Origin: a virus
Reading direction: 5' to 3' (one strand)
DNA length: 43,538 bases
IMG/VR virus record: IMGVR_UViG_3300045988_001646
Location: 1-43,538 of that record
The notes under the pieces were generated by a model. The model saw only the letters and a program-made list of their open reading frames with translations. It was not told where the DNA came from and ran no database searches. The first letter of the stretch is position 1, and each line of letters starts with the position of its first letter. The translations under genes were made by a program, and so were the position numbers. Below, in pieces: positions 3,190-29,094 of this stretch.

Positions 3190-3265
3190 ATCCCCCCCAA
3201 CACACGCCGCCGTCCCCCTTTCGGCGGCAAATAAAAAGCCACACCTTTTCAGGTGTGGCTTTTTT
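3190..3265 (+). ncRNA. Candidate small RNA (about 75 nt) with C-rich motifs
   Basis: Lies downstream of the TTGCGT-17-TATAAT promoter. C-rich 5' tail (TCCCCCCC). Hairpin GCCGCCG/CGGCGGC with a TCCCCCTTT loop. Terminator hairpin GCCACACC/GGTGTGGC followed by T6. No plausible plus-strand ORF. Confidence 0.4.
3238..3265. terminator. Bidirectional intrinsic terminator
   Basis: GCCACACC-TTTTCA-GGTGTGGC flanked by AAATAAAAA and TTTTTT. The stop codon of the 83-aa gene lies in the loop. Confidence 0.7.
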
Positions 3266-3500
3266 CTGCGTTCAGCCCGTCTGCAATTTTTCGGTATGCC
3301 CTTCGCCGGCATCGTTTTACCACGTCCACAGACACGTTCATGCAAAATGCCTGCTCCACGCAGCTGCGACGCCGCACATCGCACTCCGCGATGCACTGGG
3401 CTTCCTCTTGTGGTAACTCAAAAGATTGGATCCATGCGATAGCCCTCTTGGGTGCCATGCCCTTCAGCATGGCGCGGATTTCCCTGTGCTGCTGGTTCAT
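3249..3500 (-). CDS. Small sigma-70 region-4-like HTH protein
   Basis: 83 aa. C-terminal half (SCVEQAFCMNVSVDVVKRCRRRAYRKIADGL) resembles the region-4 HTH of ECF-type sigma factors. Weak RBS. Confidence 0.55.
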   Translation of the reverse strand: MNQQHREIRAMLKGMAPKRAIAWIQSFELPQEEAQCIAECDVRRRSCVEQAFCMNVSVDVVKRCRRRAYRKIADGLNAEKSHT

Positions 3501-9500: not shown

Positions 9501-11792
9501 CTCCAGCTCTCCGAAGGTCTTGCCGTAGGCATCCATCGCCGCGTTGTCTCTTGCCTTGCCGGTGAACATAGCCTTGACTTTGGCAAGAAATTCCTTCAGC
9601 CCGTCCAGCAGCTTCTGCGCCGCCGTGCGGTTGTCCTTGGCAAACTGTGCGAACAGATCCGTGTCCTCGATCATCCGCCCCGCGAAATCCGCGGCGATCT
9701 CGTCCATCACCTCGTCCTGCGTCAGCGTTACGCCGGCTCTCTCCGCCGCCTCCATGTACCGCTGCACGACCTCCGTTTCCGTGTCCGCGCCGTTCTCCCG
9801 CATGCGGTACTCTATCGCCGCCTGCCGGAACGCCAGGTACTCGTCGGGGGATAGGTCCTGCATCCGGTGGGTGACCTCATGCCCCGCCACCTCATAGATG
9901 GGGTTTGTGCTGTCCGCCGCGATCTGGATCAGGTTTTTCTCCCTGATGTACTGGCCGTTGGCCTGCCCATCCATAATGCTGTCCACGAACTCGATACGCA
10001 CGCCCAGCTTCTTGCCGATGGTGTTCAGCGCCGATGCCGCGCCCTTGTCTTTGGCGATGATGTACCGGCTGTAGGCATTGTCCGCCAGCCCGGCTCCCGC
10101 CGTGGTAGTCACTGCGGACACGTCCGCATTTTCCCGTGCCACCTGCGCTCTTGCGTCCTCCAGCCCCGCGTTGTACGCCGTGTACCGCTGCTCCGGCGTC
10201 AGCATCGCCGCGTACTTGCCCTTGGCCTTTTCCGCCTCAATGCCGTTCAGTCCCGCGTTGTACATGGCGGAGAAGCCTGCGTACACCTCCGCGCCGCTGC
10301 CGCTTGTTTCCCGCACCTGCTGATACGCTCTTTGCCCCGCCTCCATAAAGCCGCCCACGGCTTTCTGTGTGCGTTTCTGCGTCTGGGGGATAGCCGTGGT
10401 ACGCTGTGTCTGCTCCTGCGCTGTCTCGCGGCTTGCAAGGGCAATAATTTCACGTTTAAGCTGGCTGATCGGCTTTTCCGTGTCCAGTTTTACCCCGGTG
10501 CTGGCTTCCAGTGTTTCCACGGCCACCGGGTCCCGTGCAATGGCCGCCGCCTGGTTGCCGGTGATCGTCTCGCCCCTGGTCACCGCCTCCACGGCTTCCG
10601 CCGTCCTGCCGTCCATCTCCGGCGCGGTGTTCTTCCGCACATCCCGGTCATACTTCGTTCTGGCCGCGTTGTATGCTGCGCGGTTGGCAAGGGTGTTCAC
10701 GCCCATCTGCCCGCCGCCCAGAATACCGCCAACTACAGCGCCGCCGGCAAATTCCTCCGCCGCTGCCGCCGGGTCGAAAATGGCGCCGTTGCCGATACCG
10801 ACAAGGGGGTTGTCCCGTCCATAGACGGCGTTCTGCGTGGCGCGTTCGATCACGCCCTGCACCACTTCCTCCTTGCCCTCGTCCAGCATGGTGTCCACCC
10901 ATGCTTTCCATGCGCTGCCGCCGTTCTGCAATTCCCGGGGCAGCGTCTGGATACCGCCGCCCACTTCCACGGCGGCGTTCATAAGTCCGTTGCCGATGGC
11001 GTACACGGATGCGCGGAAATCGTCCGCGCCGTCCGCTTTTGCTTGCTCATAGCCGGGGCCAAATACTTGTGCAAAGGAGAGCTGGAAGTTCGGGTCTTTC
11101 GCCATTGCTCGCATACTGCGGGAAATGGTGTTGACCAACCCGGAGGAAGCCGCCGCGTTTTCCGCCAGTGAGCCTGCCTGTGCCGCCGTGCTGGCGCCGC
11201 CGGTCAACAGCGCCGCAATGGCTTGCGGCACCGCCGCCACCGTCGCCGCACCCAGGTCTTCGAAAACCTGCGCCGCTTTCCCGCCGCGTGCCGTGTTTTC
11301 CGCGTACCGCTGCTGCACGCCCTGCGCCTCCGCGTCAATAGCCCGGTTCCAGCGGTTGAAAAGCCAGTTGCTGGTGTCCGGGTCCCAGTAGCCGTTGGAG
11401 CCCTCCCGGGCAAAATCACCCAGCAGGTTCTCTATCCATGCGCCGGCGGAGCTGCCCACTTTGGCGATCTGTGTCAGGCCCATTTGTCCGGCCTTTGCCA
11501 GCCCCTGCCCAACGTTATATTTCCCCGCCGCACTTGTTGTGTTCCCCGCAGGCACGCTCGGCGTAACCAGCATAGACGTGTCCGGCTTATAGGTGCTGGG
11601 CGCTACATCCGCCGCCGTTCTGCCGCCGGTGCGGATAATGTCGCCGCCCATGCCGGCATCTTCCATTTTGCTGCGAAACTTATCCTGCCACCCACCGCTG
11701 TCTGCATTGCGGTTTGTCCGGCTTGCTGCGGGGATGTCGTTTTCCATCCCCGCAGCTTTCATTTTCTTCTGAAATGTCTGCTTCCAGCCCAT
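3588..11792 (-). CDS. Giant virion-associated polyvalent-type protein with a zincin (HExxH) metallopeptidase motif
   Basis: 2734-aa uninterrupted ORF with an AAGGAGG RBS. Gly/Ala-rich hydrophobic N-terminal region. HEVTH at aa 638-642 (nt 9867-9881). Several distinct globular and coiled-coil segments. Positioned among virion genes. Confidence 0.85.
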   Translation of the reverse strand: MGWKQTFQKKMKAAGMENDIPAASRTNRNADSGGWQDKFRSKMEDAGMGGDIIRTGGRTAADVAPSTYKPDTSMLVTPSVPAGNTTSAAGKYNVGQGLAKAGQMGLTQIAKVGSSAGAWIENLLGDFAREGSNGYWDPDTSNWLFNRWNRAIDAEAQGVQQRYAENTARGGKAAQVFEDLGAATVAAVPQAIAALLTGGASTAAQAGSLAENAAASSGLVNTISRSMRAMAKDPNFQLSFAQVFGPGYEQAKADGADDFRASVYAIGNGLMNAAVEVGGGIQTLPRELQNGGSAWKAWVDTMLDEGKEEVVQGVIERATQNAVYGRDNPLVGIGNGAIFDPAAAAEEFAGGAVVGGILGGGQMGVNTLANRAAYNAARTKYDRDVRKNTAPEMDGRTAEAVEAVTRGETITGNQAAAIARDPVAVETLEASTGVKLDTEKPISQLKREIIALASRETAQEQTQRTTAIPQTQKRTQKAVGGFMEAGQRAYQQVRETSGSGAEVYAGFSAMYNAGLNGIEAEKAKGKYAAMLTPEQRYTAYNAGLEDARAQVARENADVSAVTTTAGAGLADNAYSRYIIAKDKGAASALNTIGKKLGVRIEFVDSIMDGQANGQYIREKNLIQIAADSTNPIYEVAGHEVTHRMQDLSPDEYLAFRQAAIEYRMRENGADTETEVVQRYMEAAERAGVTLTQDEVMDEIAADFAGRMIEDTDLFAQFAKDNRTAAQKLLDGLKEFLAKVKAMFTGKARDNAAMDAYGKTFGELEDIAQKWQAAFDAAERQAEKAKTAAGEGDGVKYSLKNTSDKTVVSIKQQIANASKTLNDTEPVVQKNVSEIFSEMNIKQKRAWAEKEALKYGNRVDRQGYGEIEVSRKDVNSALNYLQSDGEIAAFAALPYVLKRGKEIYREADHKGRGYSTVTFAAPVVINGVRGNMAVVVRETSKNHYDMHRIVMPDGSAFTFAEKTNAETGPTAATSSTDALTQPTASTSKNSIPADGENVKPQFSLKAPVEETKNLLALHNLTEKNLLDAAKLGGLPMPSIAIVKADEGHGEYGDISFVFSKDTIDPQLFRSNKVYGYDAWTPTAPRIEYEVNEKFAKKIHDLFYRMERSKGRSFADPLYSAANTLEDELNRKGGVDKVVGAMRDDPRVMNIYLEDTGRGAVENVMKREVTRMGDNQQEMASFLIRELGESTVNDFRAKGGESPIAARKLWYKEHGEALNAALQKYYEKLGLPAKDAADVVNAETFEAKMRYMLDTRKYLAGNTETVTEEVDRDATNKAIRDKVNQKEYEQWLDNLFDGVVKNEGIYNGKDYYTSSGNRRSFSATHYDITLENIVKAMKQGDQKGANTFFGGQAIWGVASKDYGSIDEIKADSGRLQKMTEEEYSAIRQKYSERLAELTNEIKDPAARNEFIASDDAASAIVETMRTKRTVAGIDKELRTYPTLQIKPDTAEKVLQLYEDISNMPTGYFEAKPQRAVGFDEVLAAVIPNDASAEVKAALENAGVLMIEYASGDEKARLDAVNSVEGARFQLRSTADIEQEVRDLKRERTVLASRNRALEQRVQELKGEMRISKEPSVVLRDVKKLGREAIRKYGSDVEYGDIQADMEALGKAVMKKDVSMADLMPYARNAATAIVDNTTELTEHGAELLEIKDYLKRQKILFNGEMDHYNEFRKRYMGTLKLNKSEGLPVDTMYEEMTEMFGEGYFPSDVYTEADKLQQIADVLDSMDSIYENPFDSYRDAAIQEIANDIIDGMISDQVRQKKTFADRRELEKQEAVGRVREMLTKEREKRRDMVKRMRREYSEKTQKGREKRYAAEMRAKIARHTGPLSEKLLHPTDKKHIPEELRVVVADLLRNINLESAYSYDENGRLRKNADGDPTKRTMQAGKLRRLYEDIIDRDDDMVVDPALTEGGGLLASLSKLGDKRIADMNVTELETVWNAVRAIEATLTSYDRTLANQKYARTSEWADSLMMGSMSRKRRNRKISLDMADPYTFFSAYGDGGMQVYRTLRNAQDREHVMLTELRDAAKKFLDADVYKNRFERHTFTTSRGVELTLTNEQIMNMYNLAKRGEQAMNHLMVGGIVQPEIKRDGKLKAIPRGTENILLTLEDVKAITSVLTPEQIKVADGLQKLASTKLAEWGNEASMAVYGYRKFMETHYWPIKTAKEATASSVEKGPDIAREIKNMGSAKALTPNASNALDIGGVYDVFAQNASDMIKYATLLAPMEDINRLYNYRYRDSMGNLTGKNVRQVLSSVYGDAAQKYWQNLMRDVQNGQKKSGLATARVVEKYVGSYKGAAVGANWRVVIQQPTAYFRAAVVLDPENMVKGLGNGVTKGNGWDKARKWAPIAGIKDTSGFDQGSRYTIAREVYGTDGSFMTWLSDKSMSLAGKADAMTWGKIWNACEWQVAANTSLEVGSDAYYQQVAEVFTDVIDQTQVVDGIMQRTQIMRDGDMLFRQATSFMGEPLKSLNILMRSYDAWVYETNPQKRSKALKQLKRAVGALLVTDVVNALAQSIVDGLRDDDKKKKYLERVLEAFTGVTGDEKDGWELTTNIALEGNLKGNITLLGRVPFGKDIISLLQGYTVDRMDASVIDDIIKATRAMIASANGEGQKTMAYSAKQVIASVSKVFGISVANAGRDVWSLARTIASETGNVRLMFEMEKAIYRMDKSAGNKKRWCELLYRAQKERDTETARLIYREMLAHGYEEADVRQGVEAIMKQEQGVNSVKELRNRWMAP

Positions 11793-12731: not shown

Positions 12732-13100
12732 TTATGTCTTGTTCTCCAGCGCCGCCACTCTCTGCTCCAGCGCCGTATAGTCGTTGCCCAGTGCCGTCAC
12801 TCTCTGCTCAAGCGCTGTGTAGTCGTTGCCCAGTATCGTCACGCTCTGCATCAGCGCCGATATACTGGCCCCCTGGCTGTTCACCGTGCTCTGCAGGGCG
12901 GACACCGTATTCTGCAGCGCCGTCAGCAGAATGTACATCTCCGCGTTGGACACGCCCGCCTTGCTGACGTTCTTTGTCACGTTGCCCATTGCCCAGTCAA
13001 TGCGCTGGCACATGTACTTAATGTAGTTTTCCGTTATGTCCAGCGCCTCTGACGGGTTCTCCCTCGGCAGCTCGTTTATGCTCTCCGGGAAAACGATCAT
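12732..13100 (-). CDS. Coiled-coil fibre-like protein with a 14-aa tandem repeat
   Basis: 122 aa. ATGA overlap with the upstream gene. LGNDYTALEQRV(T/A)A is repeated. Confidence 0.7.
   Translation of the reverse strand: MIVFPESINELPRENPSEALDITENYIKYMCQRIDWAMGNVTKNVSKAGVSNAEMYILLTALQNTVSALQSTVNSQGASISALMQSVTILGNDYTALEQRVTALGNDYTALEQRVAALENKT
12756..12839 (-). repeat. 42-bp tandem repeat (2 full units plus a degenerate third)
   Basis: Units 12756-12797 and 12798-12839 differ at 5 of 42 positions. In-frame coding repeat. Confidence 0.85.
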
Positions 13101-14632
13101 TTCACATCACTCCCCACCATAAACGCTCTCGATATGCCCAGTATGGTGCACGGGCCCTTGCCCTCCAGCCTGAGCTCAAATTTGTCGCACCGGTTGGCCG
13201 CAAGCCGCAGGCTTGTCACGTTGTGCTCCTTGCCCACCACCGTGCCGCACGTCTGCCACGGCTTCCCGTCGCAGCGCATCTGTGCCGTCATGTAGCTGCC
13301 CTTCGGCAGCTCCAGCCGCATCAGTATCTTGGAATACGCTTTCTTGCCGTCGATGGTCTCATACATGGGGGCGAACTGCGCCATCCACTCCTGCGCCTGC
13401 GGCGTGTCCTCGCCATCCAGCAGGTACACGTCGCCGCCCGCCAGCATGTACAGCTTCTTGCCCAGCCGCGCAAAGTCCACCGCCTCCGTGCCGTCCTCCA
13501 GCACCCATATCCCGGTCTTGGTCTCATACACCATCAGCCGGTGCGCCGTGCCGTCCTTCACGCTCAGGTAGTAGCTGTCGCCGTCGTTGCCGGCTACCGC
13601 ATCGGTAAACTCCTTCTCGCCGAAGTTGTCGCTGATCAGCATAGGCGTGCCGCCGGAGTAGGCGTATACCCCGTGAGGGCCTTTATAGAACAACGTGTCG
13701 TTGATCACCTGCTGGCTTTTCTGACATCCATCCTGCAAGCCCTCCATTTCGTAGGTGTACATGGCGTACTCCGCCGGATAGCTGCCCAGCATTTTGTGCA
13801 GTTTTGTCTCCTTCCAGAACAGCACCGAAGAGCTCAGCTTGCAGCAGCCTGTGAATTTACCCTCCGTGCCCACTGCCAGCGTATAGGCGTCTGTGGATAG
13901 TCCCTCGTACACGTAAAAATTCGTGGGGTCGCCCAGCGCACTGGCGTATATGGTCTGCGTGTCGTTGTTGCAGCCCCACAGCCGGTTTTCGCTTTCGCAG
14001 ATGTAGTCCAGGTCCGGTATCTTTCGCTCGATCTTAATGCTGGTGCTGGCCTCGTTCACCGCCGTAAACGTGTTGTCCGCCACCGTGATCGTGTTGGAGG
14101 TGACCGTCTTAATGACAAAATCCTTGTTGTTCTCCGTCTTGGAGGTGCAGCCGGAAAGTGTCACGCCGTCGCCCGCTTTGAACTTAGTGGTCAGGTCCGC
14201 CCAGCCGTTCACGGTTATTTTGTTGGTGGCAAACGTGGCCTTGCTGCCGGTGATCTCCGCCGCCAATGGCTTTACCTGCTGATCCTTAATGTCCAGATAC
14301 ACCTTGTCCGGCCATATCACCATCTTGGTATTCACCACGGCAAACTGCTTCTTGCCCGCCGTCACCGTGCCCACCGTCTGCCCGTCGTACAGCAGGGAGG
14401 TCCCCTGCACCGCCACCAGCTTGTCCCACGATGTCAGCGCCGTCACATTCTGGTACCCGGTCTGCTTCACCCGGCCCTTCCGCGTGGTGATGTACGGCCA
14501 CCGTCTGGCTGACAAATTCAGGCTGTCCCGCAAATCGCCGTTCTGTATGGCGTCCGACCAGTTGATACCTCTCATCTGCACCATCTCCACCTTGTTGGGG
14601 TTCAGGGAATAGGGCAGGCTTGCCAGTCTCAT
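13097..14632 (-). CDS. Putative tail/virion structural protein (beta-rich)
   Basis: 511 aa from the ATG at 14632 (ATGA overlap with the upstream stop). Beta-strand-rich. No specific family recognised. Confidence 0.7.
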   Translation of the reverse strand: MRLASLPYSLNPNKVEMVQMRGINWSDAIQNGDLRDSLNLSARRWPYITTRKGRVKQTGYQNVTALTSWDKLVAVQGTSLLYDGQTVGTVTAGKKQFAVVNTKMVIWPDKVYLDIKDQQVKPLAAEITGSKATFATNKITVNGWADLTTKFKAGDGVTLSGCTSKTENNKDFVIKTVTSNTITVADNTFTAVNEASTSIKIERKIPDLDYICESENRLWGCNNDTQTIYASALGDPTNFYVYEGLSTDAYTLAVGTEGKFTGCCKLSSSVLFWKETKLHKMLGSYPAEYAMYTYEMEGLQDGCQKSQQVINDTLFYKGPHGVYAYSGGTPMLISDNFGEKEFTDAVAGNDGDSYYLSVKDGTAHRLMVYETKTGIWVLEDGTEAVDFARLGKKLYMLAGGDVYLLDGEDTPQAQEWMAQFAPMYETIDGKKAYSKILMRLELPKGSYMTAQMRCDGKPWQTCGTVVGKEHNVTSLRLAANRCDKFELRLEGKGPCTILGISRAFMVGSDVK

Positions 14633-14979
14633 CCCATCACCTGCACATTCCCGGTGTTGTCCGGGCAGTGCTGCCGGCGCCACCACGCCATTGCCTCACT
14701 CATCGCCTCGTCATACACCGCCTTGTCGTTGCCATACAGCGCCGTTTCGTTGTTGTAGTAGTCGATCTGGCTGCACAGATACAGCACATACACCCGGTCG
14801 TATGGCGCGGGGAGCAGCAGCTCCCCGTCGCCCGCCGGCCAACTGTGTACGTAGGAGGCCATATCGATCCTCTCCCCGATCTGCTGGTCCAGCCCCATCA
14901 CCCACGCCGCCTTCTGCTCGTCGCTTATGGTGTTCAGCCGCAGCTCGTCCGCCTGCGAAATGGTATCTGTAACCGTCAT
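14629..14979 (-). CDS. Hypothetical structural-module protein
   Basis: 116 aa. TGAGGTGAAG RBS. Translationally coupled to the next gene. Confidence 0.65.
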   Translation of the reverse strand: MTVTDTISQADELRLNTISDEQKAAWVMGLDQQIGERIDMASYVHSWPAGDGELLLPAPYDRVYVLYLCSQIDYYNNETALYGNDKAVYDEAMSEAMAWWRRQHCPDNTGNVQVMG

Positions 14980-16343: not shown

Positions 16344-17573
16344 TCAACTGCTTCGTGCTGGGCTATGACAAGCGCCTGCTTCTGGCAGATGTCCAATAGC
16401 TCGCCGGCAATTTCCGCCAGGCGCTCCACCAGCTCCTGTGAGTGCACTCGTCCATCCCTCCTTGTCTGGCCAAAAGCCGAATGTCTCCCGGAAAATCCGT
16501 GCCGACGCGCAAATGGCTCGGCGGCTGTTTCCCCTTGACATATGCCCAAAGTAGGCCGCCCATACAGGCCGCACATCCGCGAGAGTCATCTTCCCCGTCT
16601 CCACCATCCGTTGCAGCTTCGGCAGCTTTTTCCTAAATCGTACAGTGGCATCTCTCCCCATGCGCATTTTCACGCCGCCGCTCGGCCTTGTGTGGTAGCG
16701 GCACTTCAAAAACACGGATTTCTCCACAGGGGATATGCCGGTTTTCCCCTCATTGAGCCGTAGGCCGATTTGCTCCGTCGCCGCCCGGATTTTCTCCAGG
16801 CACATTTGCAGGTAAGGCAGCTCATCGTGCATGGCGTAGCCGTCATCGTTGTACCTCCCGTAGCCCTTCAGCCGCAGCTTGTCCCGGCACAGGTGGTCGA
16901 TAGGTGATGCCAGCAGCAGGGCGCATATCTGCGATACTTGGCTTCCCAGCCCCAGCCCCGCCGGGCCAAAATCCCGGATGAAGCGGTTTACTTCCTCGGC
17001 AATACGCTGGTCATGGAATAGCCGGCGGTTGGCTTCAAAAATCGGCGCATGAGGCGCGGTATCGAAAAATTTTCTGAAGTCATACCGCAGCACATACCCA
17101 CCCCGTCTTGCCTGCCGGGAAACCTGTTGTTTATAGCGCCGCATGGCAAAGTCCATGCCCTTGCCGCTCAAAGATGCCGAATTGTCGTAAACGAAGGTCG
17201 CTCGGTAGATCGGCGTCAAGACGAAGTCGCAAAGGCACTTTTGTACCACCCGTTCCGTGATATGCACCGCCCGGATGCGCCTCGCCTTGCCTCGCTCATG
17301 CACCGTAAACTCGTGAAATCCGCGATGCTTGAAGGTCCCGGCTAAAATATCCGTATGTATGTCCGCCACCCTTGTCAGCATATTATCCATCAAATTTTGG
17401 GTGCTGGCTTTCCACCGTACACCTCGGCAGCACTTCTTTGCGGATTTCCACAGGTGTAGAAAACTGAATACCTCCTCGAAATTGCCACAAGCGCGGCTCC
17501 GTTCGCTGGTTCTTTTCTCTCTTTCGGCCCTCCGGCGCTGATACCGCGCCTCCCGCCGCTCCTCGTTGCTCAT
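16344..17573 (-). CDS. DGR reverse transcriptase
   Basis: 409 aa. GGAGG RBS. RT motifs include LGSQVSQ (DGR-type [LIV]GxxxSQ) and YNDD. Sits downstream of the TR. Confidence 0.9.
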   Translation of the reverse strand: MSNEERREARYQRRRAEREKRTSERSRACGNFEEVFSFLHLWKSAKKCCRGVRWKASTQNLMDNMLTRVADIHTDILAGTFKHRGFHEFTVHERGKARRIRAVHITERVVQKCLCDFVLTPIYRATFVYDNSASLSGKGMDFAMRRYKQQVSRQARRGGYVLRYDFRKFFDTAPHAPIFEANRRLFHDQRIAEEVNRFIRDFGPAGLGLGSQVSQICALLLASPIDHLCRDKLRLKGYGRYNDDGYAMHDELPYLQMCLEKIRAATEQIGLRLNEGKTGISPVEKSVFLKCRYHTRPSGGVKMRMGRDATVRFRKKLPKLQRMVETGKMTLADVRPVWAAYFGHMSRGNSRRAICASARIFRETFGFWPDKEGWTSALTGAGGAPGGNCRRAIGHLPEAGACHSPARSS

Positions 17574-17776
17574 TTTTGCGCCTCCGTACAGTCTTATTGT
17601 CGGGTGCGGGTTCTAACTGCGTAGTCGCCGCCATGCAACCGGGTACCGCACATCCCCGGCCATGCACACAAGCGTCCGGCGGCGAGGCATCGGCGGCGAG
17701 TTTAACGGGTCAGGCGCTCCTTCGCTCAAGGCGTCGTTTTCAGCAAACCTGCTTACTAAGTCCTACCTAAGGTAGA

Positions 17777-22388: not shown

Positions 22389-23345
22389 TCAGAACGAAAT
22401 GCGTTCGCCTCTTGCCACTCTCCGCTCGATCTCTTCAAAGTCTGCCCTTGTCAGCTTTGAAGGATCTGTCTTTGTTACGAACGCGCTGTTGGAGTTGGTG
22501 CCGTTTTCGTTGGGACGATTGCCCTTTGCGCGGACGGAGTCTGCCACCTTCTTTTCCGTGCTGGCGGCCGCGGCCTGTACCGCGCTGCCCATCAGCTCAT
22601 CGAAGTGCAGCACGCGGTAGGCGTGCTCCACCGGTGTCCCGGCCTTCAGCAGGCTCAGAAACTCCTGGTTCTGCAGCTCCTGCATCAGGTCGAAGCCCTG
22701 GTACAGGGGGTTGCCCTTCATGGCCTCCGCTTCCTTGTACCACTTCTCGCCCTGCGCCCGGAAAAACTCGTTCTGCTGCTGTTCCTGCTGGCTCCGCAGC
22801 AGCTCGGCGTTCTCCCGCTTCAGCCGGCGGAACTCCTTGTACTGCTCCTCGCTCATGCCCGCCTCCTCGGCGGCCTCGCTCCAGTAGGCGTGGTCGTTGT
22901 CCACGGCCTCCAGCAGCCGCGCGGCGTCCCCGTCGTCGATGCCGTAGCGCTCCATCAGCGTATCCAGCACCGGCTGGTAGGACTTCATCCGCTTCTCGTT
23001 CTCCCGCGCCTCCTTGAAGCGCCGGTCGATCATCCGCTGCGTTTCCTGGGTGTACAGGTCCTTGTACTCCCCGTTGATCAACTCCCTGAAAGCCTTTTTC
23101 TTAGCCTCCAGCGCGTCGGACGTGGTCTCCACGTCCTTTACCTTCTCCTCAGCCCCGGCGTCAGGCTGCTGCTCCGTCTGTGCTTCGCTCTCCGGCTGCT
23201 TGCCGTACTTCACGTCGCTCAGTGCGCCCGTTTTGCCCTGGCGGGTGGTACCAGTGCTCGCTTGTGTTTCGCCCTGTGCTGCGGGAGCTGCCGCCCCGCC
23301 GCCCTCGCCGTCAAACAGGCAAAGGCTCATGTCAAAAAGGTACAT
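22389..23345 (-). CDS. Scaffolding protein
   Basis: 318 aa from the ATG at 23345 (AGGAGG RBS). Highly charged and helical. Lies between the portal/Prp genes and the capsid gene. Confidence 0.75.
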   Translation of the reverse strand: MYLFDMSLCLFDGEGGGAAAPAAQGETQASTGTTRQGKTGALSDVKYGKQPESEAQTEQQPDAGAEEKVKDVETTSDALEAKKKAFRELINGEYKDLYTQETQRMIDRRFKEARENEKRMKSYQPVLDTLMERYGIDDGDAARLLEAVDNDHAYWSEAAEEAGMSEEQYKEFRRLKRENAELLRSQQEQQQNEFFRAQGEKWYKEAEAMKGNPLYQGFDLMQELQNQEFLSLLKAGTPVEHAYRVLHFDELMGSAVQAAAASTEKKVADSVRAKGNRPNENGTNSNSAFVTKTDPSKLTRADFEEIERRVARGERISF

Positions 23346-23443
23346 ATCTTGTCCTCCTAAAAATGCGCGGGCATGTCGCTCCCGTGTGGCGTCCCCGTTC
23401 CTGCGGCGAAGCGGTGTCTCATAACCGCCGCCCCGCCGCCCGG

Positions 23444-23531
23444 AACAAAAGGGAGGTACAGAGTTCGCCTCTGCACCTCCCACGGTACCATTGCTTTTTC
23501 TGAATTTTCCACTTAAAAGTGGAATTTTCAA
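23444..23531 (-). promoter_or_regulatory. Late regulatory module A: TTGAAA box, 18-bp palindrome, then intrinsic terminator
   Basis: On the minus strand: TTGAAA-A-TTCCACTTTTAAGTGGAA-AATT, then 21 nt, then a 13-bp hairpin GGGAGGTGCAGAG/CTCTGTACCTCCC followed by TTTTGTT. Same layout as 28231-28327. Confidence 0.6.
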
Positions 23532-23806
23532 AATTTTACAGAAATTTTTTTCGGCGCCGCCTTTTCCAGCTGCAAAAAGCCGATCTTCAGCAGGTCATAC
23601 AGCCATTCTCCGCCGTGCCAGCGCAGGTACGCATCCCCGCTGTCCAGCTTTTCATACACCAGTTCCGCCTCCTGCGTGTTGTGCAGCCACCCCGCCGCCG
23701 TGTACATGAGGCAGCTTACCGCCGCACACACGTCCGGTGCGCCCGTGGCGTGTCCCCTGCACCTGACGGAGCAGCTGTCCCCGCGGTGCAGCGTTACCTC
23801 TGTCAT
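23528..23806 (-). CDS. prp: Prp-like cysteine protease (ribosomal-processing cysteine protease family)
   Basis: 92 aa. GHATGAPDVCAAVS carries the His/Cys dyad typical of Prp. ATGA overlap with the portal stop. Confidence 0.75.
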   Translation of the reverse strand: MTEVTLHRGDSCSVRCRGHATGAPDVCAAVSCLMYTAAGWLHNTQEAELVYEKLDSGDAYLRWHGGEWLYDLLKIGFLQLEKAAPKKISVKF

Positions 23807-25737
23807 ACGCTGGGTGTGCTCCGCTTGGCAAGCGCCTGCCCGTACCCGGTCATGGGCGTCTGCGCCTCCATGATGCCGCTTGCAAGGCCGTTCCCGCCGC
23901 CTCCGCCGCTCTCTGCGGTATTGGTGCCTCCGCCTGACTGCGTCTCCTCCTGGGGCATGAGAACGCCGGTGATCGCTGCCAGCTGCTGGCTCATCTGCAT
24001 CACCATGTTCAAAAGCGTTTGCCCCTGCATGACCTTCTCCTTCACCGTCTGTATGCCCTCAAAGTCCATCATGTCCAGCGCGATCAAGCTGGCCTGTGCG
24101 TTCTCCGGCGCGAAGAAGCCCATTGCGTACAGCTCCTTGGCCCGCTCGTTCTGCTCCATGCGGCTAAAGGGGTTTTTCTTCTGCGCCTTGATCTTCAAAT
24201 CGAACACCGGCCGGCGGAACATGGGATTGCCCATCGTATCCAGTCCGGTCACCTGGTCCTGCAAGCCAGTGTTGTCGAAGTCGATAAACTGGTACTCGCT
24301 GCCCTCACCTGTAATGCGGAAGCTGCGGCTCAGGTCGTAAAACTGCCGCATCAGCTCCACGCACAGGGTATTGATCTGCGTATACGCCCGATAGCTGGCG
24401 GCGATCATGTCCCGGCTGGCCTTGTTGCCCGCCTCCTGCAGTGCTGCAATGGCCGCCGCCGCGGTCACGTTGGTGGTACCGCCGGAGTTCACGTCACGGT
24501 TGGCCGCCGTGTCCTTCATCTCCTCGATCTTCATCTGCGCCACAGTCACATAGATGTCAGAAAGCGGCTGCGTCACGATCTCCTGAATGCGCCCGTCGTC
24601 CAGCGGTCCGTTCACATGCACCAGCGGCCGGTTCCAGTCCAAAAACTCCTGCTCGTTGATGGCCGTGGTGTCGCTGACAAAGAAACGCTTTTTCGTGGCC
24701 ATCATGGCGTTCTCCAGGATGTTGGCGCTCAGCTTGTCGATATACAGCTGCGGGTCCTTGCAGATAGCCACATAGCCGAAGCCGATGGGCGTGCCTTTCT
24801 CCGGGTACATCACGTCCAGCACCACCGGGTACATACCGTGGTCATAAAAGCCCCGCTCCCGGTACTCCGGGTCGTTCTCGCTGGCATACAGCAGGGTGGA
24901 GCCCACGAATTTGATGTAGTGCAGCGCCGTCCTGCCATCCGGTGTCTTGACCTTGTAATACCAGTCCACCACCACGCTCTTGTCGCTGGTGTCCACGTTG
25001 TCGTCGTAGATGTACTCCTTCACGTCCACGACCTTGCCCTTTTGCTTACCCTTCAGCTGCGGGTACTCGCTGTCCAGCAGGTCGTTGTCCACCAGGTCTA
25101 CGATAAACAGGTTCCGGCTCTTCTGGATGTCCGTGATGCCCGGCTCCCAAAACAGCTTCAGCAGGTCGATGTCCCTGATCTCGATGTCGCCCAGTCCATT
25201 GTCCTTCTGCGGGTCCCAGAAGATGCCGTACACCGCCGTGCCGTGCTTCAGCTTCTCCCACCAGTTGTCGGAGTACACCTGCTCGAAGTGGTTGTACTCC
25301 TGCACCACCGGCAATATCTGGCTCAGCGTCTTGGCGCTCTGCTCATCGCTGCGCTCCCGGGGCAATACCACCGGCTCCGGGTAGTTGTCCATCGCGTCGG
25401 CGTGCTTGTTCTGAATGGTGTTGAACAGCCACGCGGAGGACGGCTTGGGCTCCGGCGGCGTAGACGTGACCTCCTTGCCGCTCTTGTCCACCCGCTTTGC
25501 CTTGCTCTGACCGATGCCCTCCCAGTGCCGCAGCTCCCACCACAGCTCGTCGTTGACGATGCGGTTTTCCAGGTTGCTCTTTCCGTCCTTGTACTTCGTC
25601 AGCAGGTCGATGCCCCGCTCCACGTCCCGGTCCGTGATGGTGGGCGTCTGCTCTGTCCGCTGCAGCAGCATGGCCGCCATCTCCGGCGCCATGTCCTGCT
25701 CCTCCGGTACGATGCCGGGGATACCGTATCTCTCCAT
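23803..25737 (-). CDS. Portal protein
   Basis: 644 aa. GGAGGAG RBS. Lies immediately downstream of TerL. Size and sequence are typical of portal proteins. Confidence 0.85.
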   Translation of the reverse strand: MERYGIPGIVPEEQDMAPEMAAMLLQRTEQTPTITDRDVERGIDLLTKYKDGKSNLENRIVNDELWWELRHWEGIGQSKAKRVDKSGKEVTSTPPEPKPSSAWLFNTIQNKHADAMDNYPEPVVLPRERSDEQSAKTLSQILPVVQEYNHFEQVYSDNWWEKLKHGTAVYGIFWDPQKDNGLGDIEIRDIDLLKLFWEPGITDIQKSRNLFIVDLVDNDLLDSEYPQLKGKQKGKVVDVKEYIYDDNVDTSDKSVVVDWYYKVKTPDGRTALHYIKFVGSTLLYASENDPEYRERGFYDHGMYPVVLDVMYPEKGTPIGFGYVAICKDPQLYIDKLSANILENAMMATKKRFFVSDTTAINEQEFLDWNRPLVHVNGPLDDGRIQEIVTQPLSDIYVTVAQMKIEEMKDTAANRDVNSGGTTNVTAAAAIAALQEAGNKASRDMIAASYRAYTQINTLCVELMRQFYDLSRSFRITGEGSEYQFIDFDNTGLQDQVTGLDTMGNPMFRRPVFDLKIKAQKKNPFSRMEQNERAKELYAMGFFAPENAQASLIALDMMDFEGIQTVKEKVMQGQTLLNMVMQMSQQLAAITGVLMPQEETQSGGGTNTAESGGGGGNGLASGIMEAQTPMTGYGQALAKRSTPSV

Positions 25738-25747
25738 GCGCTCCTCC

Positions 25748-27190
25748 TTAATACACTTGATAAAATGCGTACCGGCTGGGCCTGTACTCGTCCTCTGTCT
25801 CCAGCGGGGAATACGGCCGCTCCACCGTCCTGTATTCCTCCCGCGGCCCTATGGGATTGCGCATGCACACATACCGCAGCTGGTCATAGATGTGGTCCTC
25901 GCCGTCGGTGTCGATGTCCTCCACGTCCGTCTGGTCATAGACCAGGTTCGGCACCGTCCGTATAAAATGCTTGCAGGTGCTGAACACATACAGCATGGGC
26001 ACTCCATCCTCGTCAAAGGCCAGCCGGTGATGCACCTGCATCTTGCCGTTGATCCGCGCGTGGTCACCCTTCTCGAAGTACACCCGCTGCCGCTCCATCA
26101 GCGCGCCCACGCTCTCCGTGCCGTCGCTCTGCCAGATGGCCGGATCTCCCACCCGGTGTATCTGCTTCCCCTTCAGGTTGGGATCCTCGTCCTCGATCCT
26201 CCGTATCTCCTGCGCCACCTTTGTTGGCTCCCACATCACGCCCCGGTTTGGTGTTCCCGTGCAGCCGTATAGCTCCCGTATATGGTACATCCGCCTGTTG
26301 CGGTCCACGGCGTACCACCCCACGGAAAAGGGCCGGGAATAGCCCCAGTCCAGTCCGCACCAGATCACCCAGTCCTCCGGCACCCGGAACGGCGCGATCA
26401 CGTGGGTGTTCTTCCGGTCCATATAGTGCTCGCTGTCGTTGCGCCACTCCGTGAACACCTGTCCCTCGAAGCTGTCCCAGTTGCCGTACAGCAGGGCGTT
26501 CCGCTCCGCCTCCGGCATGCTGGCCAGCCGCTGGACGTACATGGGGTCGTTTTCCATCAGTATCTTGTTGTCAAATACCGAGGACGGCACGAAGATCCGC
26601 TTCTGCTGCCCTATGTGCCTCCTGCCGTCCGGCGTGTACCACGCGGCCTCCTCCGTGATGGTCTGCATCGGCGCCGCCGCCGTGATGAAGCGCTCCTTCA
26701 CCCACCCGTGGCCTACGCCGCCGGGGTTGGCCGTGGAGCGCATATACACCCGCGTCCCCGGTCCGTTAGGCCGGTTTCGGGATTTCAGGTATTCGTATTC
26801 CTCCTGCGTAAAGTGCGTCAGCTCGTCAAAGGCGATAAAGTCATAGGCCTGCCCCTGGTACTGTATCTTGTCCTGCGGCCGGTTCATGCTGCCGAACACG
26901 ATCTGCGCCCCGGAGGGAAACCGCCATGTGTGGCTGCTGCCGTTGTACCTGGCCTTTGGGTATACCCGTGGGTAGTAGTTCAGCGTCTTGTCGATCAGCT
27001 CCCGCAGCTGCGGGAACGTCTTTCGCAAGATCAGCGCCTTGTACCAAGGGATATGCACCTGCCGCAGCGCCTCGATGACCAGTGCGTCGCTCTTGCCGCC
27101 GCCGGCCGCACCGCCGTACAGCGCCTCATACTCCGGCCGCGCCATAAATATGGCCTGCCGCTCCTGCGGCCGCCATACCACGCTACTCAT
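25748..27190 (-). CDS. terL: Terminase large subunit
   Basis: 480 aa. Walker A GGAAGGGKS. C-terminal nuclease-type region. Overlaps the terS stop. Confidence 0.9.
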   Translation of the reverse strand: MSSVVWRPQERQAIFMARPEYEALYGGAAGGGKSDALVIEALRQVHIPWYKALILRKTFPQLRELIDKTLNYYPRVYPKARYNGSSHTWRFPSGAQIVFGSMNRPQDKIQYQGQAYDFIAFDELTHFTQEEYEYLKSRNRPNGPGTRVYMRSTANPGGVGHGWVKERFITAAAPMQTITEEAAWYTPDGRRHIGQQKRIFVPSSVFDNKILMENDPMYVQRLASMPEAERNALLYGNWDSFEGQVFTEWRNDSEHYMDRKNTHVIAPFRVPEDWVIWCGLDWGYSRPFSVGWYAVDRNRRMYHIRELYGCTGTPNRGVMWEPTKVAQEIRRIEDEDPNLKGKQIHRVGDPAIWQSDGTESVGALMERQRVYFEKGDHARINGKMQVHHRLAFDEDGVPMLYVFSTCKHFIRTVPNLVYDQTDVEDIDTDGEDHIYDQLRYVCMRNPIGPREEYRTVERPYSPLETEDEYRPSRYAFYQVY

Positions 27191-27581
27191 CCCTGACCTC
27201 CGGCATCAGCACCACGCCGCTCTCGCCATTGTCCGATGCCTTGTTCATCATGGTCCACTTGTCGATCAGCGTACCTATCGCCGTGGTGATCTGGCTGGGC
27301 GTGGCCTCCGCCAGCTTTGCCGGGTCATTCAGCACCGCCAGCCCATTTCCGATGATCTGGCACACCACATCCCGCTGGCTCTCCATATACGCCAGAATGT
27401 CTGCCGTGTTCTGTGCTTTTTTCTCCGCGGCTTTTTGTTCAAAGTCGTCGCTTGCTTCAACAACGCGCTTTACCGTGGTAGGGTTTACGTTGTTTTTCCT
27501 TGCCGTGGCGCGATAGCTGCCGCTTTCCAGATAATCCGCCAGTATTTTCTTTTTCTGCCGGTCTGTCAGTCTCGCAGCCAT
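27183..27581 (-). CDS. terS: Terminase small subunit (HTH-containing)
   Basis: 132 aa from the ATG at 27581 (GAGGTGA RBS). N-terminal HTH (SYRATARKNNVNPTTVKR). Lies directly upstream of terL. Confidence 0.75.
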   Translation of the reverse strand: MAARLTDRQKKKILADYLESGSYRATARKNNVNPTTVKRVVEASDDFEQKAAEKKAQNTADILAYMESQRDVVCQIIGNGLAVLNDPAKLAEATPSQITTAIGTLIDKWTMMNKASDNGESGVVLMPEVRDE

Positions 27582-28098
27582 GTTATCACCTCGTTTTGTC
27601 TGACGCACCGGCCTCCCACCACTGGCCTTTGTCGTTGGCACGTCTGTACCCGGCTTTCGCCTCACCTAATATGTTCCCGCCGTGAGCTATGTGCCCCGCA
27701 AGCATACATAGCATCCACCACGGCGAAATCCTTTGCAGTAAGCAGACTATTTGAGACGCATCCCATACAGCGGTCTGCCAGCGCATCGCCTGTTGTTTTA
27801 CACAATCGGTCGGGTACCACCACGCATCAATACTATCCTACACAGCGGCTTTGTCCTAAGACAACCGCCACCACACCACATCCACGCCTCGGATTTCTCT
27901 CAAACACGGTGGTACCCAAACCAACCACGGAACTTTTCAGCCCTGCGCCGGTACGTCGGTCGCATCCGTTCATCTTTACAAAGCCGGTGCCAGCCAATAC
28001 ATAAATTACTTCGTCCTGCCGCTTTCGTACAGCGCACAGGAAAGACCACTTTCGCAGGCTTACGCTCCGTGCGGCTGCGAGGCAAGAGGTCACGCCTA
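27582..28098 (-). other. 517-nt ORF-free segment (candidate large structured RNA and/or pac region)
   Basis: No credible ORF on either strand in an otherwise tightly packed genome. CCACCAC occurs at 27616, 27715, 27817 and 27868. A 10-bp inverted repeat GGGTACCACC (27812-27821) / GGTGGTACCC (27909-27918) is present. Confidence 0.5.
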
Positions 28099-28177
28099 TG
28101 GTGCAGACAGCAAGATTTGAACTTGCGAACCCGAAAATTCTTCATATCGGAGCTGTATCCACCCAGCTTCTGCCTGC
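28099..28177 (-). tRNA. Non-canonical tRNA, probable anticodon GAA (Phe-like), with an aberrant anticodon arm
   Basis: 7-bp acceptor GCAGGCA/TGTCTGC. D-arm AGCT(G)...(C)AGCT with GG in the loop. T-arm GCAAG-TTCAAAT-CTTGC. Encoded ACCA. The anticodon region CCGATATGAAGAATTTTCGG needs either a 3-U bulge or an 8-nt loop. U8 is absent. Confidence 0.6.
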
Positions 28178-28191
28178 ATATTGCTCCCTCC

Positions 28192-28213
28192 GGGCGGAGC
28201 CGAAGCCCCGCCC
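28192..28213 (-). promoter_or_regulatory. UUCG-capped GC hairpin 5' of the tRNA
   Basis: On the minus strand: GGGCGGGGC-TTCG-GCTCCGCCC (9 bp, one G-U), 15 nt upstream of the tRNA 5' end. Confidence 0.5.
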
Positions 28214-28230
28214 ATCAGGAAAAGAAGGGG

Positions 28231-28327
28231 GAAAAGAAAAAAAGAATGGAGATGCAGAGTTTGCCCCTGCATCTCCCATGATAAAATGCGTTTTTTCAAT
28301 TTTTCCACTTTTAAGTGGAATTTTCAA
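28231..28327 (-). promoter_or_regulatory. Late regulatory module B: TTGAAA box, 18-bp palindrome, TGn-AAAAAT, then intrinsic terminator
   Basis: On the minus strand: TTGAAA-A-TTCCACTTAAAAGTGGAA-AAAT, then 21 nt, then a 12-bp hairpin GGAGATGCAGGG/CTCTGCATCTCC followed by ATTCTTTTTTTCTTTT. Confidence 0.6.
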
Positions 28328-28330
28328 AAT

Positions 28331-28564
28331 TTATTTTTCGGAAATATCTACTACGCAGGGATAGTCCGTCCTGCCCATCAGATAATCCACCGACACACCA
28401 AATTCATCCGCTATGCTCTTCAGCGCATCCATCGTCGGCTTCGCCGTCCCCAGCTCATACCGCCGTATGGCATCCGAATTCAGCCCGCAGCGCTCCGACA
28501 GCACATACCGCTTCAGTCTCTTTTTCTCCCGCAGCTTTCTCAGCCGTTCCGGGAATTCGCTCAT
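28331..28564 (-). CDS. XRE-family HTH protein (last early gene, abuts late module B)
   Basis: 77 aa. GGAGGAGG RBS. Classic HTH_3 sequence (LRKLREKKRLKRYVLSERCGLNSDAIRRYELG). Confidence 0.8.
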   Translation of the reverse strand: MSEFPERLRKLREKKRLKRYVLSERCGLNSDAIRRYELGTAKPTMDALKSIADEFGVSVDYLMGRTDYPCVVDISEK

Positions 28565-28565
28565 G

Positions 28566-28862
28566 TCAGCACCTCCTCCCCAATGCGGTCATGATCTTCT
28601 TGTCCACCTCCGTCAGCGTAACCAACGCTTCTTTTAGGTCATACTCCATCGGCGGAGGGCCTGGCAGGTCGCACTGTATAATATCCTCCGGGAAGAACGT
28701 CTCCCGCACCCCGCCGCACTCCGCCACGATGTACCGCCCCTTCGGATGCACATACACCACCGTGCCCTTGCGGATAGGGAATTTCTTTTCTTCGCACCCC
28801 TTACCGGGGAATAAGTCTGGCAGCGTCATAAACCTCGCCCGGATCGTGTCACCCTTTTGCAT
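28566..28862 (-). CDS. Hypothetical protein
   Basis: 98 aa from the ATG at 28862 (AAAGGA RBS). The longer ORF extends to 28916. Confidence 0.5.
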   Translation of the reverse strand: MQKGDTIRARFMTLPDLFPGKGCEEKKFPIRKGTVVYVHPKGRYIVAECGGVRETFFPEDIIQCDLPGPPPMEYDLKEALVTLTEVDKKIMTALGRRC

Positions 28863-29094
28863 CTGCCCCGTCCTTTCGTTCGCCGTAGGAGCAGAAATCG
28901 TCATACCCGCTGGCAACCATCCGGCAAGCGTATGTTTTGAACTTCAGACAGTCCTTGCACCGCACCACGACCTCTGCGTCTACGGTGGGCGCCGCGCTCA
29001 CAATGGGCAAAGCAATCTCGTCTCTATCTGCATTATCAAACCACGGCTCGTTATCAAGCCGTTCCCATAGATCGTCGCCATCAATCAGCCGCAT
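28849..29094 (-). CDS. MRLIDGD-family small protein (paralogue 1)
   Basis: 81 aa starting MRLIDGDDL. Shares PTVDAEVVVRCKDC with 29382-29639. Its start overlaps the upstream stop (ATGCGGCTGATTGA). Confidence 0.65.
   Translation of the reverse strand: MRLIDGDDLWERLDNEPWFDNADRDEIALPIVSAAPTVDAEVVVRCKDCLKFKTYACRMVASGYDDFCSYGERKDGADAKG

Follow-up and report, generated by a model that had tools for sequence, protein, structure and literature searches.

The 43,538-nt viral sequence IMGVR_UViG_3300045988_001646 (the whole stretch is referred to here as the window) carries on its minus strand two copies of a compact regulatory module. One (module B) directly follows the gene for a 77-aa XRE/HTH_3 protein and the other (module A) lies between the prp and scaffold genes. 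We propose that each is probably a late promoter that is activated by the XRE protein and overlaps the terminator of the upstream operon, the second copy being placed before the scaffold and capsid genes. The evidence comes from the anatomy and conservation of the modules, their linkage to the XRE gene, and co-variation both between operator and protein and within the hairpin stem. From these we infer XRE binding, activation, start sites and termination. An earlier note on this DNA had claimed a duplicated late-gene regulatory module, and that claim is supported by our analyses.

Layout of the two modules

Pfam and PHROG scans gave the gene order 116-aa protein, XRE, module B, TerS, TerL, portal (P22-type), Prp, module A, scaffold and capsid, which confirms the placement of module A between prp and the scaffold gene, within the late block. 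The approximately 560 nt between module B and TerS have no protein family match. Reading of the strand and alignment of both sites bore out the two-copy layout that the earlier note had described, including each of its parts. TTGAAA starts at position 23531 (A) and 28327 (B) and is followed, after one nucleotide, by the palindrome TTCCACTT-NN-AAGTGGAA. Downstream of the palindrome are TGG+AAAATT (A) or TGG+AAAAAT (B) and, 21 nt further, a hairpin with its loop and tail (the tail in B is ATTCTTTTTTTCTTTT; all coordinates are in Table 1). With up to three mismatches allowed, the palindrome has only these two matches in the window. The chance expectation is 0.14, and two or more matches occurred in 0 of 100 shuffles.

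The two hairpins (−29.3 kcal/mol, z −4.7 for A; −22.8 kcal/mol, z −6.4 for B) are the top two terminator-like scan matches within 20–32 kb. From A to B the stem differs at pair 6 (G-C to A-T), pair 8 (G-U to G-C) and pair 12 (A-U to G-U), the three pairing-preserving changes that had been reported, and the basal G-C pair of hairpin A is gone in B. The TTG-initiated “MKIPL...” open reading frames (ORFs) at 23531 and 28327 are real as ORFs and, as suspected, spurious as genes. Annotation gains from the removal of these two ORF starts and from a corrected scaffold start. A search of the whole window with Rfam 15 at gathering thresholds gave no match at either module, and a permissive Rfam search of 23200–28600 gave chance-level matches only, with nothing at the modules.

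Related modules

The earlier note had asked whether the module is present in related phages. An IMG/VR exact-pattern scan returned at least 119 stretches, which gave 107 oriented modules, 80 of them distinct, among the matches listed. More distant relatives were found via a portal-based scan (one genome per species) and an XRE protein search (46 homologues, 57–99% identity), and divergent modules were collected by exact-pattern scans and protein-anchored look-ups. Overall, more than 180 related modules were found in viral and metagenomic contigs. Many of them are closely related and come from one large metagenome data set, and most of the IMG/VR loci stem from data set 3300045988; the key arguments below count lineages (referred to by L numbers), not sequences.

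B-type modules have a central AA and occur right after the XRE stop codon, and A-type modules have a central TT and occur after Prp. The two types are 4.5–5 kb apart in relatives, as in the window. A variant operator, TTCCCCTT-NN-AAGGGGAA, in which the change is symmetric in both half-sites, was found in the same architecture next to XRE homologues of the H/P type (see below). An IMG/VR scan for this variant returned 80 stretches, which added at least six module lineages. Comparison with GenBank phages by blastn found only unannotated faecal “Bacteriophage sp.” contigs, with no annotation to transfer.

A hexamer at a fixed distance from the palindrome

In 79 of the 80 distinct window-type modules among the matches listed, the palindrome is followed at a distance of 19 nt by an nAnnnT hexamer (20 nt in the other one), and the 19-nt distance holds in every other lineage read. 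Hexamers without TG (TATCAT, TATGAT, TACAAT, TAGAAT, TAAAAT and TATAAT) are near consensus. Those that are always preceded by TGn (AAAAAT, GAAAAT, GACAAT, AACAAT, TACCGT, TACTGT, TAATTT, TAAAGT, TAGCGT and TAACAT) are weaker, and a strong hexamer is never combined with TG. The module A variants TGT+TACTGT and TGT+TACCGT retain TGn, TA and the final T. The −35 is poor (TGGAAA or GGGAAA, at 18-bp spacing); a promoter scan flags TGGAAA-18-TATCAT in copy B. Because hexamer quality and TGn trade off against each other, this compensation is, judged across the lineages, the apparent signature of a real −10 held at intermediate strength.

Start sites were predicted at the usual 7-nt distance from the −10 hexamer, and the promoter geometry rests on that assumption. 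With the hexamer as −10, the palindrome would span −49 to −32 (centre −40.5) and the AAAATTTT block would lie at about −62 to −50, the zone of UP elements. With the start so placed, the modules have what defines a class II promoter, namely a dyad site at about −41.5, a weak −35 and a functional or extended −10.

The earlier note had assigned the promoter to TTGAAA and AAAA(A/T)T, on either side of the palindrome. We do not retain this assignment, as its −10 and −35 are degenerate in several lineages while the 19-nt hexamer is positionally invariant. Although AAAATTTT is retained in all lineages, TTGAAA is replaced by TTCAAA, TTCAAT or TCCAAA in L197, L286, L287, L288 and L290. The final (−7) T of AAAA(A/T)T is lost in C2, C3 and L225 and, among the matches listed, in 6 of 16 distinct A-type sequences, with AAAAAC, AAAATC and AAAACG as degenerate forms. 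In L286, L287, L290 and L291 both boxes are degenerate and a T tract lies to the right of the palindrome.

The same note had likened the module to lambda PR′/qut/tR′. In such a scheme, a constitutive TTGAAA-17-AAAA(A/T)T promoter would start transcripts about 15–20 nt before the hairpin and yield terminated RNAs some 50 nt long. Once bound to the palindrome, a phage protein would load onto polymerase, perhaps at a TAnnnT-GGGA sigma-dependent pause, and render it resistant to the terminator. The phage 82 pause has a −10-like hexamer at about +10 to +15, and a −10-like hexamer plus GGGA would here fall at about the same positions. The upstream promoter also reaches 9/12 in each copy (in B, its −10 is preceded by TG), its spacer is occupied by the palindrome, a full hairpin and T tract follow in 15 lineages, and a constitutive promoter with a terminated transcript would fit prophage life. 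However, the −10 has lost its final T as described above, and the four lineages in which both boxes are degenerate have no downstream terminator either, although operator and second hexamer are retained. Pfam and PHROG scans of flanking and early-region ORFs found no Q-family protein or other antiterminator (a few small ORFs had no family). The sole linked protein is a 67–84 aa HTH_3 domain, unrelated to Q and far smaller, and the perfect dyad points to a protein that binds DNA as a dimer rather than to a Q-binding element. We consider antitermination of the lambda kind quite unlikely, and have given up the analogy. Even less likely is a form of it in which the hairpin is a true terminator of late transcripts and the XRE/HTH_3 protein, loaded from the dyad operator, makes polymerase terminator-resistant, so that an unrelated 77-aa domain would act as Q does.

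The window and most class I lineages (those with the terminator after the −10) have both promoter-like arrangements, and a single operator would suit a role at each, since it lies in the spacer of one and at −40.5 of the other. A constitutive upstream promoter might thus produce a short terminated RNA until XRE shuts it and activates the downstream promoter, so that the terminator is bypassed. This switch between two promoters is unlikely: the upstream promoter is not conserved across all lineages, nothing requires it, and the short RNA has no evident function.

Linkage and co-variation with the XRE protein

Among the matches listed, an XRE homologue (58–99% identity) ends no more than 40 nt upstream of 81 of 82 B-type and 75 of 79 C-type modules, and upstream of none of the 26 A-type copies. 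The B- and C-type modules without an upstream homologue are at locus edges. XRE is the last early gene before terS in nearly all homologue contigs, including the window, L197–L204 and L287–L288. The exceptions have a 96-aa ORF (L286) or inserted reverse-strand genes (L291–L293) between the two. The XRE-carrying phages differ in their packaging and head modules, which include SPP1-type portals, Terminase_3 and DUF5681 small subunits. A role of the palindrome as a pac, cos or att site was dropped, given that it travels with the XRE gene and not with the terminase type.

Operator and protein co-vary. GTGG half-sites are found with a recognition helix that starts with GL-N-SDA (window type, P0036/L286, P0033/L290 and P0042/L291), and GGGG half-sites with GL-H/P-xDA (P0016, P0014/17, P0022, P0023, P0032, P0043, P0028 and L225). 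The residue that co-varies with the operator is N30, at the start of the recognition helix; N-type proteins go with AAGTGGAA as the promoter-proximal half-site and H/P-type proteins with AAGGGGAA. For the N-type proteins P0036, P0033 and P0042, which are 57–68% identical to the window XRE, GTGG operators were predicted before the sequences were read, and the prediction was correct in 3 of 3 cases (TCCACATATATGTGGA in L286, TTCCACTTTTAAGTGGAA in L290 and TGCCACTTTTAAGTGGAA in L291). This co-variation, together with the successful N-type prediction, is good indirect evidence that an XRE dimer is the ligand of the palindrome. The suggestion of the earlier note that the palindrome is a protein-binding site, with the 77-aa XRE protein as a candidate partner, thus gains support from both linkage and co-variation.

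XRE might instead be a repressor that acts through the palindrome to block an otherwise constitutive late promoter, for example delaying or limiting late expression. Characterised XRE/HTH_3 phage proteins are mostly repressors or Cro-like (PHROG 8, 4 and 3 annotations), and the operator overlaps the promoter core. However, the early lytic operon is silent in the lysogen, so XRE could not hold the late genes off in the prophage, and for this reason an early-encoded late regulator is expected to be an activator or antiterminator, not a repressor. The promoters also look deliberately sub-optimal, as expected for activator dependence, and the slot immediately before terS is where late activators are canonically encoded (PMC3753634). 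We regard repression as improbable.

The XRE-terS junction looks like an insertion hot spot. In L202 a gene for an IS605-family OrfB/TnpB (Cas12f-like; 7935–9059) is located between the late promoter module and terS, and in L291–L293 a reverse-strand gene block parts the XRE gene from the operator. A second IS605-family OrfB/TnpB copy is found upstream, in the early region, in L204 (2859–3971).

The hairpin as a probable built-in terminator

In 15 lineages, a hairpin of 12–18 bp (−16 to −28 kcal/mol) begins 0–2 nt past the hexamer, with a T- or pyrimidine-rich tail behind it. The hairpin sequences are unrelated between lineages and too divergent for MAFFT alignment, so stem co-variation was counted on stems anchored at the hairpin base. 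Counted in this way, 95% of stem cells are paired, whereas over 2000 shuffles of the 3′ arms the paired share averaged 64% and peaked at 80%. Stem positions 4–9 show 3–6 pair types each. The loops are 4–11 nt long, and the loop of L258 and L224 is inverted relative to that of L207. Given the high pairing despite unrelated sequences and variable loops, it is evidently the structure of the hairpin, not its sequence, that is under selection, as far as comparison between lineages can tell. Selection on RNA structure, which the earlier note had argued from the two copies, therefore extends to co-variation in a larger set of lineages.

The inverted loop of L258 and L224 is part of a 14-nt apical segment that occurs in both orientations (TGGGGCGAGGCTCT versus AGAGCCTCGCCCCA) within identical 10-bp arms, an inversion between inverted repeats.

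Hairpins A and B share about 80% identity, with loop and GGGAG start among the matching parts, whereas the 19-nt spacer upstream has diverged. Their pentaloops are GNRA-like. This would suit a two-copy small RNA gene or a protein-bound RNA element (a boxB-like pentaloop, GCRAA) rather than a terminator. Across lineages, however, loop sequence and size vary and conservation is confined to the stem and the T/pyrimidine tail, the hairpin is missing from class II lineages, and there is no Rfam match. We give such an RNA element very little credence.

The placement of terminators is informative. In class I lineages, which include the window, the 4–28 nt between the XRE stop codon and the operator leave no room for another terminator. 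In the class II lineages L286, L287, L290 and L291 the order is terminator, operator, TGn-hexamer, short 5′ untranslated region and terS, with no hairpin downstream. In total, the downstream hairpin and T tract are present in 15 lineages and absent in five (L225, L286, L287, L290 and L291). Since class I lineages have a terminator-like hairpin behind the −10 and class II lineages have theirs ahead of the operator, this near-complementary placement speaks for a role of the hairpin in shielding the late unit from transcription that arrives from upstream.

The pyrimidine tract behind hairpin B is ATTCTTTTTTTCTTTTCCCCCTTCTTTTCC, and similar CCUCC-containing tracts occur behind the hairpin in other lineages. 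Possible roles include a Rho loading site, anti-Shine-Dalgarno pairing or a spacer.

Proposed late switch

In the proposed mechanism, XRE would be made from the end of the early operon, and its dimer would bind the 18-bp palindrome at about −40.5, overlapping the weak −35 (TGGAAA), with the A/T-rich AAAATTTT block upstream acting like an UP element. Once bound, XRE would recruit host RNA polymerase carrying the primary sigma factor, or activate it, at the −10 hexamer located 19 nt downstream. Pfam and PHROG scans of the early genes turned up no sigma factor. The hairpin with its T tract would start 0–1 nt past the −10 hexamer (TGG-TACCGT in A and TATCAT in B, each then GGGA). Transcripts that read in from upstream would carry the full stem and terminate, those of the early operon at B and those of TerS-TerL-portal-Prp at A, where the hairpin would end or attenuate the TerS-Prp unit. 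Transcripts from the late promoter would begin 5–7 nt inside the 5′ arm and retain a stem-loop of 6–8 bp. With the remainder of the 3′ arm left unpaired between it and the T tract, this shortened stem-loop should not terminate, and polymerase would read on. Copy B would drive the tRNA-like element and the terminase-portal genes, and copy A would re-initiate transcription before the scaffold and capsid genes, whose products are needed in large amounts.

Published systems offer support for parts of this scheme. Ltr/RinA phages have, in the same intergenic position, their regulator gene together with a terminator and a terS promoter that depends on the regulator (PMC3753634), and terminator-promoter overlaps exist between bacterial operons (PMC6735719).

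Several points weigh against the scheme. In copy B and in many lineages, TTGAAA-17-TGgAAAAAT matches a sigma-70-type promoter well and may likewise be active. The hexamer at 19 nt could be a sigma-dependent pause element instead of a −10. The promoter rules applied here are borrowed from E. coli and B. subtilis, and the Oscillospiraceae polymerase is assumed to be alike. L225 has no terminator either upstream or downstream. Finally, the H-type protein of L287 is found beside a hybrid operator, TTCCACTT..AAGGGGAA, of which the promoter-proximal half is GGGG.

Putative late promoters in relatives without XRE

The portal-based scan gave 77 loci, in which the proteins of the window map in the order TerL-portal-Prp-scaffold-capsid. 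Most are labelled as Oscillospiraceae or other Clostridia (Oscillibacter, Flavonifractor, Lawsonibacter, Evtepia and Faecalibacterium); several are under other taxon names and may be mis-binned contigs. Among these relatives, only L120 has both an XRE gene at this position and the palindrome. About 12 relatives without XRE (L121–L145 and L160) have another, two-box motif before TerS and again between Prp and scaffold. It reads TTTCGGGG(Y)G(A/C)AA, 15–16 nt, TGnTA(C/T)G(C/A)T, or TTTCGGGGYGMAA, 15–16 nt, TGnTAYGMT (e.g., in L125 at 3919 and 8463). The upstream box varies across genomes and matches between both copies of one genome. The downstream box is, by its sequence, a predicted extended −10, and the window has TGG-TACCGT (A) and TATCAT (B) in the same place. 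Because syntenic relatives without XRE have another promoter type at the same two sites, the two late promoters are presumably ancestral, with the regulator and both promoters exchanged together. In some of these relatives, the place of XRE is taken by a Zn-ribbon protein of 54–77 aa (DLCGRCA...CxxCGRRRYGATY); as it was found in only 5 of about 12, it was rejected as the explanation of the two-box motif.

Leaders of the predicted late transcripts

The B leader contains a tRNA-like element with a 7-bp acceptor (GCAGGCA/TGTCTGC), a T arm (GCAAG-TTCAAAT-CTTGC), an ACCA end and an aberrant anticodon arm. ARAGORN called no tRNA on this leader. True tRNAs (Cys, Gly-ccc, Gln, Asn, Met and Thr) were found 125–530 nt after the operator in the leaders of L028, L030, L065, L025, L225 and L201. 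The late-operon leader therefore looks like an exchangeable tRNA slot, which in these sequences often starts after a conserved AATAT.

The small hairpin before the scaffold gene has the form CACGG(R)G(S)CG-N5-6-YCCGCG in about 22 relatives (L120–L145, L160, L164, L176 and L182), where it is located 10–20 nt upstream of the ribosome-binding site. Compensatory changes occur in its stem (CACGGG/CCCGCG, CACGGA/TCCGCG and CACGAG/CTCGCG, i.e., GG/CC, GA/TC and AG/CT), an A.C mismatch is conserved, and the hairpin is duplicated in tandem in L121, L124 and L127. Its role may be that of a translational operator or of an RNA motif for scaffold/capsid expression.

Genes and other features of the window

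The XRE protein has family matches limited to HTH_3, HTH_31, HTH_19 and HTH_26, and the nearest solved structures are generic Xre-family domains. Scans of early and flanking ORFs gave HTH_3 regulators and recombination, SSB and methylase genes. The 83-aa sigma-r4-like protein (3249–3500) has a weak PHROG sigma match (9e-5), is located at the far end of the late region and is outside the model.

The 116-aa protein upstream of XRE (28566–28916, minus strand) has the motif “KGTVVYVHPKGRY...RETF” and no family assignment. The motif is also present in small proteins at the same position in L120 (3e-43) and, weakly, in L125 (4e-4). The late/tail region includes a diversity-generating retroelement (16344–17770, minus strand), with an RT-2 RNA (RF03077, 111.7 bits, E 2.8e-25) at 17559–17770 directly upstream of the reverse transcriptase ORF (16344–17573; PHROG 1423, 4e-69). 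A single ORF of 2734 aa (3588–11792, minus strand) is also in the late region, downstream of an internal-virion-protein homologue (13097–14686).

Table 1. Coordinates in the window of the module parts, leader elements and associated genes
Feature	Position	Strand	Remarks
Module A	23444–23537	−	A/T-rich block, palindrome, hexamer, hairpin, T-rich tail
A/T-rich block of A, AAAATTTTGAAAA	23525–23537	−	UP-like; includes Prp stop codon TGA (23528–23530) and TTGAAA
Putative operator of A, TTCCACTT-TT-AAGTGGAA	23507–23524	−	18-bp palindrome
Proposed extended −10 of A, TGG + TACCGT, then GGGAG	23482–23490	−	Predicted start near 23475
Hairpin A, 13 bp, loop GCGAA	23451–23481	−	Predicted terminator stem for TerS-TerL-portal-Prp transcripts
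T tract behind hairpin A, TTTTGTT	23444–23450	−	
Second GC-rich hairpin of A leader	23396–23447	−	Fold prediction
Small conserved hairpin, CACGGGAGCGACATGCCCGCG	23366–23386	−	Just upstream of scaffold ribosome-binding site
Scaffold gene	22389–23345	−	ATG start 23343–23345 after AGGAGG; PHROG 13908 match begins at residue 66 of the long ORF
Module B	28231–28333	−	Layout shared with module A
A/T-rich block of B, AAATTTTGAAAA	28321–28333	−	UP-element-like; includes TTGAAA and XRE stop codon
Putative operator of B, TTCCACTT-AA-AAGTGGAA	28303–28320	−	18-bp palindrome, centre about −40.5
Proposed −10 of B, TATCAT, then GGGAG	28278–28283	−	From promoter scan; predicted start near 28271
Hairpin B, 12 bp, loop GCAAA	28248–28276	−	Predicted intrinsic-terminator stem for upstream transcripts; 5′ arm overlaps predicted start
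Tract behind hairpin B, T-rich then nearly pure pyrimidine, 30 nt	28218–28247	−	Kept in related modules and C-type lineages
Second GC hairpin of B leader, GGGCGGGGC-TTCG-GCTCCGCCC	28192–28213	−	
tRNA-like element, B leader	28102–28173	−	Rfam tRNA 24.2 bits, under gathering score 29
77-aa XRE/HTH_3 protein	28331–28564	−	Pfam HTH_3 7.7e-11, PHROG 8; last early-operon gene; proposed late activator

Comparison with known systems

The searchable literature gave no account of this element, nor of an XRE-type late activator in Clostridia phages. The analysis offers a concrete late-switch model for very abundant temperate gut phages of Oscillospiraceae (Oscillibacter, Flavonifractor, Faecalibacterium and relatives). 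It specifies a small XRE protein, an 18-bp operator, a specificity position (Asn with T; His/Pro with G) and a promoter geometry. The XRE gene and promoter would form a mobile cassette that moves together ahead of differing packaging and head modules. If late transcripts start inside the stem, the same stem would stop upstream transcription and pass late transcripts, and, if this is true, the compact insulator design could be reused in synthetic circuits. The XRE-type late-promoter system is a new variant that extends known regulator logic and introduces no new principle.

The closest parallel in organisation is with Ltr/RinA/ArpU (PMC3152322, PMC3753634). There, as here, a small regulator is encoded by the last early gene, directly upstream of terS, and an intergenic terminator of the regulator operon is combined with a regulator-dependent terS promoter (here predicted). 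The regulators are specific to their own promoters, and the cassettes are swapped between phages. In contrast, Ltr is about 130 aa (~15 kDa) with a sigma-region-4-like C-terminal domain and the protein here is an HTH_3/XRE domain of 67–84 aa; domain scans of the 77-aa XRE gave HTH families only and did not place it in the Ltr superfamily (RinA, ArpU, LtrA-C). The Ltr site consists of direct repeats rather than a perfect 18-bp dyad. Moreover, the terminator is here mostly after the −10 and not before the promoter, and the window lineage has a second copy within the late operon.

The predicted geometry resembles that of class II activators (lambda cI at PRM, with OR2 near −42; CRP/FNR at −41.5; Mu C/Mor, PMC4461284), in which a dyad over a poor −35 is centred about 40–43 bp upstream and the −10 is good or extended. 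Mu C also runs several late promoters in one phage. Here the geometry is read from sequence only, there is no C/Mor homology, and the A/T block and terminator overlap are absent from those systems.

As in the Q systems of lambda, 82 and 21 with PR′/qut/tR′, a promoter (here predicted) with a protein site in its region and a close intrinsic terminator precede the late genes; a −10-like element in the early transcribed region would be a further likeness only if the upstream promoter is used. Unlike those systems, the modules have no Q homologue, a non-conserved upstream promoter and a dimer-type dyad. Their terminator is only about 15–20 nt past the upstream-promoter start and is absent downstream in some lineages.

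Finally, in bacterial terminator-promoter overlaps (PMC6735719), the terminator of one operon likewise overlaps the next promoter, which couples and insulates both units. The searchable literature gave no description of a −10 that precedes a terminator stem with the start site inside the 5′ arm. The bacterial cases involve chromosomal housekeeping operons without a dedicated activator, whereas in the phage modules the proposed −10 precedes the stem and the predicted start lies inside its 5′ arm.

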